Source of the DNA: Neisseria sp. CP9
GTDB lineage: Bacteria; Pseudomonadota; Gammaproteobacteria; Burkholderiales; Neisseriaceae
Direction: 5' to 3'
NCBI RefSeq assembly: GCF_047758525.1
Contig: NZ_CP180502.1
Coordinates: 511,357-543,356, forward strand
DNA: 32,000 bases
Numbering within the stretch: the stretch's first letter is position 1; each line of letters starts with the position of its first letter. Below the pieces are notes generated by a model. The model was not told the DNA's origin and did not search any database. It worked only from the letters and a program-made list of their open reading frames with translations. Shown piece by piece: positions 13,797 through 21,137 of the stretch. The translations under genes were made by a program, and so were the position numbers.

Positions 13797-13883
13797 ATAT
13801 ATTTCGCTTCCGTTAAGGGAGTGTAAAACACATTTAGAACCCCTTGACAAATTCGATTAACCGACATTTGAGAGGGGTCTAAA

Positions 13884-14816
13884 ATGTTTTTACAGCAACA
13901 GATTGAATTTCAGCAGCAAGCGGACGCGAAGCGTGCCGCGCTTCCTTGTCTAAATAGTAACAACTGCATTGACGCAAAAAATACCAATGTAATCAAGGAA
14001 AAGCAAAAACCCGCAAGCATAGAAAAATACCTGCCGAACACAGCAAAACCCGAATTTAACGAATTTTCCACCTCACACAAGAAATCCGCCGCAGCCTTAG
14101 AGATGAATGTAAGACAGTTCATCGAAGTTTTCGGAATTGAAAAGGTCGGATTTCTTACCCTCACATTTGCCGACGACGTACAAGATGTCAAAGAGGCAAG
14201 CCGCCGCTTTCACAGCCTGCGCACAAACTTTCTTAAAAAGCATTTCGAACACTATGTCTGCGTATACGAGCGCATGAAAAGCGGTCGTATTCACTTTCAT
14301 CTTATCGTCAACACCCGCGAAGACATCCGCCGCGGTCTGAATTTCCAACAAATTCAAGCTCGTAATTATACAAGCGCAAATAAAAATCTGCGTCAGCTTT
14401 GGCAAGTCCTCCGTGAAAACATGGAAAAGTACGGATTCGGACGATCCGAACTACTGCCCGTCAAAACCAACAGCAAAGGACTTGCCCGCTACGTCGGCAA
14501 ATATATCGCCAAACACATTGATAGCCGTCTGCCTGAAGACAAAGGCTATCGTCTGATTCGTACCACCATAGACAAAAAACAGTTGTGGAAGATTGCGAAC
14601 AGCAATTTTTCGTTTGTATCCGCAGGTTCGCGCCAGTGGCGCGAGAAGCTGCAAAAGTGGGTTATCTGCATTGAACCCCTTTTACAGGCACATGCCGAGC
14701 TTTTCTACGAAAGAAAGCCCAAAAAGATTACAGAGGACAATTACAACGCCGTCCTATCAGCCCTTTTAAGCCCGAAATGGGCGTTTTATAACCGAGAAAC
14801 CATCATCAATATGTAG
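13884..14816 (+). CDS. Rolling-circle replication initiator (HUH endonuclease, phage Rep)
   Basis: The three RCR motifs are present: FLTLTF, HUH (GRIHFHLIVNT), and the catalytic Tyr motif YVGKYIAKH. Confidence 0.85.
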   Translation: MFLQQQIEFQQQADAKRAALPCLNSNNCIDAKNTNVIKEKQKPASIEKYLPNTAKPEFNEFSTSHKKSAAALEMNVRQFIEVFGIEKVGFLTLTFADDVQDVKEASRRFHSLRTNFLKKHFEHYVCVYERMKSGRIHFHLIVNTREDIRRGLNFQQIQARNYTSANKNLRQLWQVLRENMEKYGFGRSELLPVKTNSKGLARYVGKYIAKHIDSRLPEDKGYRLIRTTIDKKQLWKIANSNFSFVSAGSRQWREKLQKWVICIEPLLQAHAELFYERKPKKITEDNYNAVLSALLSPKWAFYNRETIINM

Positions 14817-14839
14817 CGAAACCCGTAACCGTTGATTTT

Positions 14840-14934
14840 GGTTCGGGGGCGGGATGGGCGCGAAACCGCACTTGCGAAGCAAGGCGAACGGCGCAAGCCG
14901 TGTGTGAGCGCCCCTCCCGTCCCGCCCCCGAACC
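14840..14934 (+). promoter_or_regulatory. GC-rich compound hairpin in the rep-ssb intergenic region (candidate phage origin)
   Basis: GGTTCGGGGGCGGGA (14840-14854) pairs with TCCCGCCCCCGAACC (14920-14934). An inner GGGCGC/GCGCCC pairing and small stem-loops (CTTGC-GAA-GCAAG at 14871-14883; CGGC-GCAA-GCCG) lie inside. A direct repeat AACCGTTGA flanks both arms. Confidence 0.5.
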
Positions 14935-14975
14935 GTTGAATACCAGCAACCCCGACTTTAAAGAAAGGAAACATC

Positions 14976-15245
14976 ATGTCTCAAGAAACCGAACGCAAAC
15001 AAGGTATTTTCGTCATTGCCGCATTTGACCGTATGTTCACACGCGAACGCAAAAACCAAGACGGCACATTCAGCAAGACCCACTATGTCGGTCTGATTAT
15101 CCGTTCAGACACAGAAACCCGCCTTTGCGAAGTTCGCACAAAACATCCCGAAAAGTACGAGCAGTACAAACCGCAGCAAATCGTCTCCATGCAAGTGTTT
15201 CCCCGTGCATTTAAAGACAACATCTACTATTCGGACGAAGCATAA
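14976..15245 (+). CDS. Probable phage ssDNA-binding protein (g5p analogue)
   Basis: 89-aa basic/aromatic ORF directly after rep, as in inoviruses, with an AAGGAA RBS. The assignment is positional. Confidence 0.55.
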   Translation: MSQETERKQGIFVIAAFDRMFTRERKNQDGTFSKTHYVGLIIRSDTETRLCEVRTKHPEKYEQYKPQQIVSMQVFPRAFKDNIYYSDEA

Positions 15246-15336
15246 ACCAGTTTCAGGGGTTCGGCGGTGTCCCCTGAATTGACCCCGAAACACCGCCACA
15301 ACTACTTTTTATCAACATTTCGTAAAGGAAAACAAA

Positions 15337-15558
15337 ATGAAACTGAAACAAAAACTGCAATACGCCGTAGCCGGTGCATCCGTTGCCATCATGTCTTTGC
15401 CTGCAATGGCAGAAGACAGCGCGTTGATTACAGCCGCCAAAGCTGAATTGTCAGGTGCGAAAGAGGGTGTTTCGTCTATTGGCGCGGTTGTAATCGGTGT
15501 TGCTGCTGCAATGGTCGTTGTTGGTCTGATTATCAAAGCAGTACGCAAAGGCGGTTAA
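15337..15558 (+). CDS. Major coat protein (g8p-like)
   Basis: 73 aa. It has a signal peptide ending PAMA, an acidic mature N-terminus (EDSA...), a hydrophobic helix (IGAVVIGVAAAMVVVGLII) and a basic C-terminus (KAVRKGG), the textbook inovirus coat layout. Confidence 0.85.
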   Translation: MKLKQKLQYAVAGASVAIMSLPAMAEDSALITAAKAELSGAKEGVSSIGAVVIGVAAAMVVVGLIIKAVRKGG

Positions 15559-19152: not shown

Positions 19153-19344
19153 ATGAACGCATTAGAATTTGTTATTTCGTGTTTGGTTGTGTATGCAATA
19201 ATTCATATTCATAGAAAGCATGGCACGGCTTATTTCAAAATGTTGATTAAAGAATTTGGCATTTTTATTTTTGGTCTTGCTATTATTTTTCTTGTATTAT
19301 GCGCCGCAGGAGTTTTAATGTTCGCAGCCCAATCGCCCACCTAA
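19153..19344 (+). CDS. Small two-TM hypothetical protein, visibly AT-rich relative to the rest of the prophage
   Basis: 63-aa ORF with a TAGGGA RBS and two hydrophobic helices. Confidence 0.45.
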   Translation: MNALEFVISCLVVYAIIHIHRKHGTAYFKMLIKEFGIFIFGLAIIFLVLCAAGVLMFAAQSPT

Positions 19345-19350
19345 CCACAA

Positions 19351-19427
19351 GTCAAGGGGAGGGCGTCCAGAAAGATTTGTAAAGACGGCTTTATCGTCTT
19401 TATAAATCTTTTTGGATACCCCTTGAC
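19351..19427 (+). promoter_or_regulatory. 77-nt imperfect hairpin (candidate inovirus packaging signal or origin element)
   Basis: The outer 9-bp stem is GTCAAGGGG/CCCCTTGAC. The inner 22-bp stem TCCAGAAAGATTTGTAAAGACG / CGTCTTTATAAATCTTTTTGGA has only two G-T pairs. The loop is 7 nt (GCTTTAT). Confidence 0.55.
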
Positions 19428-19705
19428 GCTAACCCACCCAAAGACGCTGCCCGCAAGGGGTGGGGTGTGTTTTTTACCCCACCCCCTGCCACGTGGCGAA
19501 CGTCGCCGAAGGCAAAAAGAGTTCTAAGCCCTGAGCGGGAAAACCTCCCTTTCAGGGGTTCGGATTCATGACCCGAACCGCAGCCCGCGACTTCCGAAGC
19601 ACGACCAAAGCCACAGCTTGGGAAAAAGATAGAAGCGCGGGCTTCCGTACATACCCAGTTTGAACACTATACAAGGCTACGAGCCTGAATAAATAAGGCA
19701 AAACA
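19428..19705 (+). ncRNA. Candidate structured non-coding RNA (IS110-type bridge/seek RNA) upstream of the recombinase gene. Hypothesis only.
   Basis: No ORF of 60 aa or more on either strand. Stems seen: a 10-bp perfect stem GGGGTGGGGT/ACCCCACCCC (19457-19485), GGCGA-ACG-TCGCC (around 19495-19507), GGTTCGG/CCGAACC (19557-19579), and an 11-bp bulged stem GCCCGCG-A-CTTC/GAAGCGCGGGC (19583-19642) enclosing a 37-nt loop. Confidence 0.3.
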
Positions 19706-20653
19706 ATGTACTACCTAGGGATAGACGTATCAAAGAAAACCATAGACTGCTGTCTGATTTCAGACAGCATTTTTTATGAACGGAGGTTTGACAACACAGA
19801 GGACGGATTCAGACGGTTGGACGACTGGATACAGGGGTACACCGCTAAAGCGGTGCATTGCTGTTGTGAAGCGACAGGAATCTACCACGAAGCCATAGCC
19901 GCACACTTAAGACAGAAACACATCGTAAGCATAGTCAATCCAAGCAAGATAAAAGGCTTCAGAGAAGCCGAACAGACACGAACTAAGACCGACCGACAGG
20001 ACGCGAGGCTGATAGCCGAATACTGCCGACGAATGCAGCCCCAAGCATGGCAGCCGCCGACAGAAGAGCAAGAATACCTCCAAGCCATCACAGACTATAT
20101 AGCCCGCCTTAAGCAGCAGAGAGCCGCAGAGCAGACCAAACACCAAACCGCACCCGATACTATCCGCCATCACATACAGACCACCATAGACCATCTGAAC
20201 AGGCTTATAGCAACCGTACAAAACGAACTCAAAGACTTCTACCGCCAAAACCCCGCCTACAACGAAAAAAAGAACCGCCTGAAAACCATAGACGGTATAG
20301 GCGAATCCGCCGCTTCCGTTCTGCTTACCAAACTCACACGCTACGACTTCGCCAATCAGAACCAATTTACCGCATACCTCGGTTTAGATCCAAAAATCAA
20401 AGATTCGGGGACAAGCGTCAAAGGAAAGCCCCGAATATCTAAACAGGGGCAAAAGAACGCACGCAAAGCCCTGTATATGCCCGCACTTGTCGCTTACCGT
20501 ATGAACGCATTTCCAGCCTTTACAGCCCGCCTCAAAGCGAGGGGAAAGCCTCCGAAGCTGATAATAGTCGCCATCATGCGCAAACTGGCGGTTATTGCCT
20601 ACCAACTGTATAAAACAGGTAAAGATTACGACCGTTCCCGATACCGAAATTAG
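19706..20653 (+). CDS. IS110-family (Piv/PivNM-like) DEDD recombinase/transposase
   Basis: The N-terminal RuvC-like DEDD signature is YLGIDVSKK, CCEATGIYHE and KTDRQDARLIAEY. The C-terminal domain has IDGIGESAAS...YLGLDPKIKDSGTS...RISKQG. Confidence 0.9.
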   Translation: MYYLGIDVSKKTIDCCLISDSIFYERRFDNTEDGFRRLDDWIQGYTAKAVHCCCEATGIYHEAIAAHLRQKHIVSIVNPSKIKGFREAEQTRTKTDRQDARLIAEYCRRMQPQAWQPPTEEQEYLQAITDYIARLKQQRAAEQTKHQTAPDTIRHHIQTTIDHLNRLIATVQNELKDFYRQNPAYNEKKNRLKTIDGIGESAASVLLTKLTRYDFANQNQFTAYLGLDPKIKDSGTSVKGKPRISKQGQKNARKALYMPALVAYRMNAFPAFTARLKARGKPPKLIIVAIMRKLAVIAYQLYKTGKDYDRSRYRN

Positions 20654-20670
20654 ACAGCGGCATGAAAAAA

Positions 20671-20690
20671 CGCCCCGAAAAATCGGGGCG
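20671..20690 (+). other. Perfect 8-bp hairpin CGCCCCGA-AAAA-TCGGGGCG just after the recombinase stop (terminator or element-end structure)
   Basis: Seen directly. No T tract follows, so it is not a classic intrinsic terminator. Confidence 0.5.
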
Positions 20691-21137
20691 CAGACCTCGT
20701 GTATCTTTAAGATATGTAAATGTTGTTGACGGTGGAATACACTATCTTTTTCTTTTTACCTGCCAAACATACCCGCACCAATATGAAAGCGCATAACACG
20801 ATTACCCAATGCAGCGACAAATTGATTTGAAATCAGCGAAAAACAAGGAAGTTATCCTTATCCGGCAGCTTTGCCTCTTATCTTCATCACCCTCTACCCG
20901 CTTCTATCACCAACTTCTCTAATAATCGCGCCGCAGAGAAGGCGCAATTGTGGCATAATCTGCACCAAATCAAACAGACATCGGCAATGCACACCATACC
21001 GGCGCGCGGATCCGATGGCTTTATCACCAAACTTTCAGACAAATCAAATCAAGACGGAGCTTCCAGCCAGAGGTCGTCTGAAAGTATCCGCTTCAACGAA
21101 ATTAAAACCGACAAATGTAAAGAGCAGAAAGTCTCCC

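Follow-up and report, generated by a model that had tools for sequence, protein, structure and literature searches.

The DNA analyzed here is a 32,000-nucleotide (nt) stretch of Neisseria sp. CP9 (contig NZ_CP180502.1), hereafter called the window, which carries a filamentous prophage, or inovirus, at 13797-20748. All coordinates are positions within the window, and L-numbers (L001-L114) designate comparison loci or contigs. The prophage measures 6,952 bp when one copy of its CTT core is counted, as determined by comparison with empty sites, and its nine open reading frames (ORFs) are all intact and all located on the plus strand. Taken together, the results are likely explained by an intact, recently active phage of the Nf type that was inserted at the edge of a DNA uptake sequence (DUS), apparently steered by a bridge RNA. 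An earlier reading of the bare letters and their ORF list (the sequence-only reading) had listed nine plus-strand ORFs, all of which are present where it put them, and had recognized the architecture of an inovirus, borne out by family matches for the Rep, coat, TspB/g3p-like, g6p-like, Zot and IS110-family proteins, in order. The left limit that it proposed, 13797, was exact, and the right one, 20715, fell 33 bp short of the true end at 20748, which was established by the empty-site contigs.

The gene array is headed by Rep, a 310-amino acid (aa) HUH rolling-circle initiator (13884-14816, plus strand, like all other features of the element given below; PF23343 REP_ORF2-G2P, 8e-13; phrog_3419, 9e-17), in whose translation the HUH motif, as HFH, and a YxxKY motif are visible. 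The following 89-aa protein (14976-15245), with 93-95% identity in L033/L034, has no Pfam or PHROG match in profile searches and may be the single-stranded DNA (ssDNA)-binding protein, judging from its position and size. The 73-aa major coat precursor (15337-15558; Phage_Coat_B, 4e-5, above the gathering score; phrog_2145, 1e-7) displays in translation a signal peptide, an acidic mature N-terminus and a basic C-terminus. Next comes a 103-aa protein with a C-terminal membrane segment (15558-15869), a candidate minor virion protein that is 28-50% conserved across Nf-type loci and for which the profile searches returned no significant family, the marginal match being phrog_12382 (E = 0.009). The TspB-like, or g3p-like, adsorption protein (15859-17682; Neisseria_TspB PF05616, 4e-18) is 607 aa long and possesses a signal peptide and a C-terminal anchor. 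It precedes a g6p-like minor coat protein of 94 aa, counted from the ATG at 17679 (17679-17963; DUF2523, PF10734, 3e-13; phrog_1242, 3e-17); phrog_1242 is the PHROG "minor head protein" family, and the counterpart in the deposited phage OR148970 is annotated as G6P. The last three genes encode a Zot/pI-type assembly ATPase of 392 aa with one membrane segment (17967-19145; PF05707, 1e-27; phrog_197, 1e-79), a small hydrophobic protein of 63 aa (19153-19344), 100% conserved in L007, L109 and L114 and with no significant match in the Pfam and PHROG searches, and a 315-aa DEDD/Ser recombinase of the IS110 family (19706-20653; DEDD_Tnp_IS110 PF01548 and Transposase_20 PF02371). As the sequence-only reading had pointed out, stop and start codons overlap at three places (TAATG at 15556-15560, 11 nt at 15859-15869, and ATGA at 17679-17682) and a secretin ORF is missing; indeed, profile searches found no match to a secretin family among the ORFs of 13797-20748. 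ORFs of up to 152 aa on the minus strand of the element were treated as spurious, all being antisense to genes with matches.

The intergenic region at 19351-19552 begins with a long, near-perfect hairpin (19351-19427, 31-bp stem) between the Zot and recombinase genes and contains further hairpins, with a DNA fold of -57.5 kcal/mol (z = -7.0). Its sequence is kept in the distant relatives L001, L008 and L009, and it is a candidate packaging signal or minus-strand origin. It is followed, just upstream of the recombinase gene, by the putative bridge RNA (19553-19700). Beyond the recombinase gene, the right noncoding end comprises 95 nt (20654-20748) and includes the left half of the donor, ACACTAT (20739-20745), and the CTT core (20746-20748). 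The sole terminator-like hairpin found in this end by a scan of 19100-20900 faces the minus strand: it is G+C-rich (20670-20691), is followed by a T-run on the minus strand only, and by its orientation would halt transcripts that run into the phage from glyS.

The two flanking host genes, which encode a TbpB_B_D lipoprotein (12274-13728) and glyS (from 21138), served for an exact-protein look-up by which empty-site contigs were found in oral metagenomes. In the conspecific ones (L011-L027), lipoprotein gene and glyS are spaced by 457 bp, versus 7,409 bp in the window. Base-by-base comparison gave attB as ...GCAGTTTCAGACGAC-CTT-TTTCTTTTTACC... (left part also given as GTTTCAGACGAC), attL as ...TTTCAGACGAC-CTT-ATATATTTCGC... 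with its core at 13794-13796, and attR as ...GGAATACACTAT-CTT-TTTCTTTTTACC... with its core at 20746-20748. Up to and including 13796, the window and the empty site do not differ, and the crossover lies inside the CTT core, which attB and attP have in common. Nothing but this CTT is common to attL and attR, there being neither terminal inverted repeats nor target duplication beyond the core. The same prophage limits recur in L003 and L109, at other chromosomal sites. The comparison with relatives carrying the empty site, which had been suggested together with the sequence-only reading, has therefore defined attL and attR exactly.

The left half of the attachment site is the right arm of an inverted pair of uptake sequences (13758-13795), with AGGTCGTCTGAA at 13758-13769 and its reverse complement at 13784-13795, that constitutes a terminator-like hairpin behind the lipoprotein gene. 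The crossover falls at the 3' edge of this right arm and leaves the 12-nt DUS intact. AGGTCGTCTGAA is AG-mucDUS, which N. mucosa ATCC 25996 has as its primary DUS (PMC7371117). The window contains 35 copies of it, roughly one every 0.9 kb, in keeping with the mucosa-group host supposed earlier, and the canonical DUS GCCGTCTGAA has a single occurrence in the 32 kb, which places the host outside the meningitidis/gonorrhoeae dialect group. At such a density the mere proximity of a DUS to the phage is unremarkable; the one at the left end might be phage-borne, or coincidental and outside the attachment site. This explanation is almost certainly wrong, as the inverted pair stands unchanged in the empty site, for which reason a phage-borne DUS was rejected, and the phage interior has no DUS at all, none occurring between 13796 and 21070. 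Furthermore, the crossover has the same position relative to the DUS in every independent insertion, and relatives in hosts of another dialect sit at the DUS of that dialect. The dRS3 repeat (ATTCCC-N8-GGGAAT), which the sequence-only reading had already looked for in vain at both junctions, is found nowhere in the window, even with one mismatch allowed, and its guess of a different attachment sequence was right: attB is the 3' edge of an inverted DUS followed by a T-tract, with CTT as the core.

A recombinase 100% identical to that of the window was recovered by exact-protein look-up at no fewer than seven other chromosomal contexts; in all those insertions, the left border is TTTCAGACGAC-CTT and the right one CTTTTTC. 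The copy in L109 (NCBI assembly GCA_001838365.1) is 99.83% identical over 6,952 bp and sits at a different locus; no frameshift emerged from this comparison, and in the copies at other sites all ORFs have the same length. The attP junction was located in the same manner in an ENA assembly. Its contig, L114, is 7,010 bp long and overlaps with itself by 55 nt at the ends, as is typical of a circle, here of 6,955 bp, and it carries the identical recombinase, the order transposase then rep, and exactly the predicted attP, GGAATACACTAT-CTT-ATATATTTCGC. The circular form that had been anticipated thus exists as in silico evidence, from another sample than this strain. Exact searches with the predicted 23-nt attP gave 0 hits in IMG/VR and 0 in JGI metagenome contigs. 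The element is a complete, recently mobile prophage, because it occupies multiple sites, has a near-identical copy, an attP circle and circular relatives from saliva, and keeps constant ORF lengths. Integration by XerCD at dif, of the CTXphi type, was considered and rejected, the phage having its own recombinase and at least 8 chromosomal sites, the window included, none of which is dif-like.

Another explanation, which is very unlikely, is that of a domesticated or defective remnant, or a satellite that yields no virions, spread by transformation and homologous recombination. Neisseria is naturally transformable, and transformation has been suggested for the spread of Nf1 (PMC7058167); in addition, the element is known from sequence alone, has no secretin gene and includes small ORFs devoid of a family match. 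However, its ORFs are intact and equally long wherever it is inserted, and precise, identical junctions at 7 or more sites would not be a product of homologous recombination. The circular 6,955-bp contig with its attP junction also speaks for an active phage, as do the related circular genomes of 7-7.5 kb from saliva viromes (OR148970).

The recombinase aligns over its full length with the transposases of IS621 (PDB 8WT6, E = 5.9e-60) and ISCro4 (9T56, 1e-58). Its residues D7, E55, D96, D99 and S234 align with the catalytic D11, E60, D102, D105 and S241 of IS621 and do not vary among relatives. The guide of IS621 is a bridge RNA encoded directly upstream of its gene (PMC11208160). In the phage, the roughly 130-150 nt before the recombinase gene (about 19553-19700) fold into a 5' stem-loop (19556-19578), a 12-bp outer stem (19582-19594 with 19632-19643) that encloses an internal loop and a small hairpin, and a second hairpin region. 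A consensus structure built on 20 diverse relatives has 96.4% of its cells paired and compensatory changes in 13 of the 18 pairs; none of 500 shuffles reached these values, and slid registers gave 21-52% pairing. The single-sequence fold has a minimum free energy z-score of -2.6.

The segments that would read the target are in the first loop. The left target guide (LTG), ACGACC (19601-19606), is identical to the top strand of attB, ...ACGAC-C, that is ...CAGACGAC-C, and the right target guide (RTG), GAAAAAG (19622-19628), is the reverse complement of CTTTTTC, i.e., core plus right flank. Immediately after the latter, AU(A) (19629-19631) can pair with the donor AT beside the core, the handshake arrangement described for IS621 (PMC11208158). 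The second loop matches the donor in the same fashion: the left donor guide (LDG), ACACUAU (19664-19670), equals the left half of the donor, and the right donor guide (RDG), AUAAG (19693-19697), is the reverse complement of CTTAT, which consists of the core and the beginning of the donor right half, with a hairpin (19675-19685) between the two. The match of the latter guide is confined to AUAAG(G), and the structure closing the second loop is weakly defined; the former equals the donor left half in five donor types. In IS621, the 5' side of a loop corresponds to the top strand and the 3' side to the reverse complement of core plus right flank (PMC11208160), and the guide loops of the phage follow this strand rule.

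Further support was provided by the covariation of guides and targets among loci with related recombinases, of which 80 were from IMG/VR, 9 from a scan of genome contigs (8 of them Neisseria), and 10 from exact-protein look-up. These loci have a common RNA architecture upstream of the transposase gene, with the apparent exception of L070-L074. Their donor halves were located by anchored patterns; a search for the longest shared k-mer was abandoned, as it often chose irrelevant k-mers. Among 46 unique combinations of RNA and flank, the RNA contains the reverse complement of the 7 nt that open its right flank in 34, or in 42 if G-U pairs are admitted, compared to 9 of 521 for non-cognate flanks; in 10,000 permutations, the mean was 4.4 and the maximum 14, against an observed 27. 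The flank/guide pairs include CTTTTTC/GAAAAAG, CTTTCTT/AAGAAAG, CTTTGCT/AGCAAAG, CTTGATG/CAUCAAG, CTTCTTTC/GAAAGAAG, CTTTTCC/GGAAAAG and CTGCGCG/CGCGCAG, and the pair CTTTTTT/AAAAAAG occurs inside the clade of this phage itself (L007, L030).

The left guide behaves likewise. It is ACGACC at ...CAGACGAC sites, the mucosa dialect GTCGTCTGAA; ACGGCC at ...CAGACGGC sites, the canonical dialect GCCGTCTGAA; GCAGCC at one ...CAGGCAGCC site; and CCCGCC at GGATTCCCGCC, the left half of dRS3. None of 10,000 permutations reached the observed count, and the A/G switch in the guide arose independently in at least two recombinase lineages, one 50-100% and the other 38-39% identical to the protein of the window. 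As a positive control, the prophages that lie between dRS3 halves (L033/L034, L083-L099) have the same RNA architecture with loops that match dRS3. The donor guide covaries with the phage end (ACACTAT, AGTAGTATC, AACAGTATC, ATATCATC). Because the flanking host DNA has no common ancestry with the phage, phylogenetic inertia cannot explain the guide-flank signal.

Two groups of loci from IMG/VR may be mentioned here. L031 and L032, a sister clade, have the same donor, ACACTAT, and a quite different target loop; in L032, the right flank is CTATTTC, matched by GAAAUAG. In L070-L074, a donor-like GGATACTATCT lies about 110 nt upstream of the start codon and the 135 nt examined contain no target loop, so that their RNA seems to be laid out differently or further upstream.

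Several observations weigh against a guiding role of the RNA. An Rfam 15 scan of 13500-21300 (E <= 1) returned only chance-level hits to mir-4782 and purD and no bridge-RNA family, and a sigma-70 scan of 19100-20900 predicted no plus-strand promoter upstream of the RNA. The distance between the RNA and the left end, where the donor junction is, amounts to about 5.8 kb, and the right end follows about 1.05 kb downstream. In IS621, the circular junction supplies the promoter, which is rebuilt upon circularization; with the junction 5.8 kb off, a promoter rebuilt there could not drive the RNA of the phage, and its expression would be organized otherwise. The guides are also short: the left one has 6 contiguous matches, the second core base being unmatched in this clade (ACGACCA versus ACGACCT), the left donor guide does not include the core C (ACACUAUA), and the right donor guide amounts to 5-6 nt only. 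Lastly, the left-guide rule is broken in four loci. In L030 and L100, the site differs from the left guide at the position that distinguishes the DUS dialects, and in L047 and L099 the left flank, ...TTAAAACCT, is unlike the guide of the locus itself and matches that of L077. The modules of these four exceptions are mosaic, which suggests recombination between prophages; they are probably mosaic or tandem prophages, or may be cases of tolerated mismatches.

Accordingly, one could suppose that the recombinase protein itself recognizes target and donor DNA, with the upstream region being a DNA binding site or an mRNA leader or regulatory element. The missing promoter and Rfam match would suit this view, as would the end of the conserved region 5 nt before the start codon, where a 5' untranslated region is possible; the RNA is known from the sequence alone, and guides of 6-7 nt are weak evidence when taken singly. 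Nevertheless, this alternative is unlikely. The enzyme is a full-length homologue of IS621 and ISCro4, whose specificity is encoded in RNA (PMC11208160, PMC11208158), and the matching segments occupy internal loops of a helix that compensatory changes support, and obey the IS621 strand rule. Moreover, the guides covary with host flanks that are unrelated by descent to the phage, and recombinases that are 58% identical and use the same donor are found at DUS or at dRS3, as the loop sequence dictates. The RNA is thus regarded as probably produced and as a probable guide of the enzyme.

The prophage is in effect a 7-kb element of the IS110 group, for which the following mechanism is proposed. In the circular replicative form, the donor attP, ...GGAATACACTAT-CTT-ATATATTTCGC..., would lie between the recombinase gene and rep. 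The recombinase would bind the RNA of about 150 nt encoded directly upstream of its gene, whose first loop would read the chromosomal target, ACGACC as the top strand and GAAAAAG as the complement of CTTTTTC, and whose second loop would read the donor through ACACUAU and AUAAG. Recombination at the common CT(T) core would then place the phage at the 3' edge of an inverted AG-mucDUS, next to the T-tract. No repeat is more frequent in the genome than the DUS, so the phage would have very many potential sites, and its guide would fit the DUS dialect of the host group. Following excision, or once the HUH Rep has replicated the phage, the Zot-like ATPase would assemble virions, which would be exported through a host secretin. 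MDA virions leave the cell via the host secretin PilQ (PMC7058167), and by analogy virion production and PilQ-dependent export may be expected for this phage.

The best-known relatives are the Nf1-Nf4 and meningococcal disease-associated (MDA) filamentous prophages of N. meningitidis and N. gonorrhoeae, reportedly described by Kawai in 2005 and by Bille in 2005. Like them, the window element is about 7-8 kb long, has the gene order Rep, small proteins, coat, TspB, g6p-like, Zot and IS110 transposase, lacks a secretin, and uses its own IS110-type enzyme on an abundant chromosomal repeat with a CT-containing core. A published definition of Neisseria filamentous prophages asks for Rep, TspB and an IS110 transposase inside a span of about 8 kb (PMC7058167), and the window element has all three within that distance. 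Nf phages integrate by their own transposase at dRS3, at a CT motif (PMC7058167), so that the target is ATTCCCGC-CT-GCGCGGGAAT in Nf1-Nf4 and MDA, unlike the DUS edge (ACGAC-CTT-TTTC) of the present phage, which also differs in its divergent proteins and in its host, a mucosa-group commensal. The Nf/MDA-type layout with a terminal IS110 gene, as described in the sequence-only reading, therefore stands as Nf-type, and a narrower assignment to Nf1/MDA does not, given this divergence and the absence of dRS3. The expected similarity to Nf or other inovirus proteins was found: with respect to dRS3-flanked Nf-like prophages, which also have the same noncoding RNA architecture upstream of the transposase gene, identity is 78% for Rep (L033/L034), 93-95% for the 89-aa protein, 33-51% for Zot and 40-58% for the transposase. 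Filamentous prophages were reported earlier in N. sicca and N. macacae, without att sites (PMC7058167).

The likeness to IS621 and ISCro4 extends to the DEDD and Ser recombinase, the noncoding RNA directly upstream with its 5' stem-loop and two guide loops, the CT core, the handshake positions, the repeated host target and the circular donor form. The phage differs from them in that phage genes occupying about 5.8 kb separate the donor core from the RNA, that its left guides are shorter (about 6 nt), and that the function of its RNA is putative. The integrative and conjugative element ICENmu of N. mucosa ATCC 25996 is likewise a mobile element of the mucosa group with AG-mucDUS in its attachment site (PMC7371117), and its authors proposed that DUS targeting, together with a point mutation that switches the dialect, widens the host range (PMC7371117). 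Unlike the phage, ICENmu is conjugative and 36 kb in size, carries a protein integrase and has a 21-bp att motif, and its specificity is not encoded by a guide RNA (PMC7371117). The closest deposited phages are D_HF3_12 and its relatives (OR148970-72), salivary inoviruses with circular genomes of 7.5 kb and 53% identity in Zot, and Dulem virus 50 (PP511607); over all of these, the identity in Zot is 51-53%. They have the same gene order, including transposase then Rep, and OR148970 has attP ACACTAT-CTT-ATATATT and the same RNA, whereas their left guide is ACGGCC, of the canonical dialect, their Rep module is different, and they are annotated as genomes only, with no description of the integration site.

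Nf-type prophages, their integration at dRS3 by their own transposase, IS110 bridge RNAs and the presence of a DUS in the att site of an ICE are already known. A search confined to one library of papers found no report of a bridge RNA in a filamentous phage, of a DUS as the target of such a phage, or of covariation between guide and dialect. With somewhat less assurance than for the single prophage, the Neisseria filamentous phages as a whole may be considered, on balance, natural bridge-RNA-guided "giant IS110" elements in which the target loop was repeatedly reprogrammed. If so, the loop would read dRS3 in dRS3-flanked Nf-like prophages, putatively of pathogenic species, and in oral commensals the host dialect, GTCGTCTGAA, GCCGTCTGAA or GCTGCCTGAA-like, with one A/G change tracking the dialect. 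In that case, the sites and the species group open to lysogeny by these phages would depend on a few guide nucleotides, and the prophages would be flanked by uptake signals that could aid their spread by transformation.

The proposed guide RNA would give a simple reason for the choice of repeats by the Nf/MDA IS110-type enzyme and would make its specificity naturally switchable. It would also link DUS dialects with filamentous prophages, both of which affect horizontal transfer, and in the case of MDA also disease association. As a bridge recombinase moving a 7-kb load that lies between donor core and guide RNA, the system would be a natural precedent for cargo, and an RNA acting away from the donor junction, combined with such cargo, would bear on engineering uses of bridge recombinases. 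Finally, with exact att sites at hand, prophages of this kind can be located, and their limits drawn, in oral Neisseria genomes, where prophage predictors miss them (PMC9238386).

Some minor observations concern the rest of the window and the variation among copies. Aligned with an empty-site contig, the whole window shows two insertions only, the phage and an unrelated IS5-like element (11346-12200). The latter lies between the phosphatase-like and lipoprotein genes, is absent from the empty-site contig L011, and has minus-strand ORFs that match HTH_Tnp_4 and DDE_Tnp_4 and are apparently split by a frameshift. At 28920-28931, the inferred target (ACGACCTTTTTC) is matched perfectly a second time over 12 nt, and this site is unoccupied; 11-nt matches occur at 23263 and 24998 on the plus strand and at 13754 and 6536 on the minus strand. 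In some prophages, the first 13-16 nt of the left phage end are tandemly duplicated at attL, as in L009 (6034-6062, e.g., CTTATATATTTCG), L030 (75-103) and L047 (2502-2536). The TspB-like protein varies between phage copies that are otherwise 95-99% identical, being only 80-83% identical in L003 and L114. Its middle remains unaligned at 16193-16479 with L003 and at 16193-16495 with L114 (phage positions 2397-2683 and 2397-2699, respectively), and it looks like a hypervariable receptor-binding segment.

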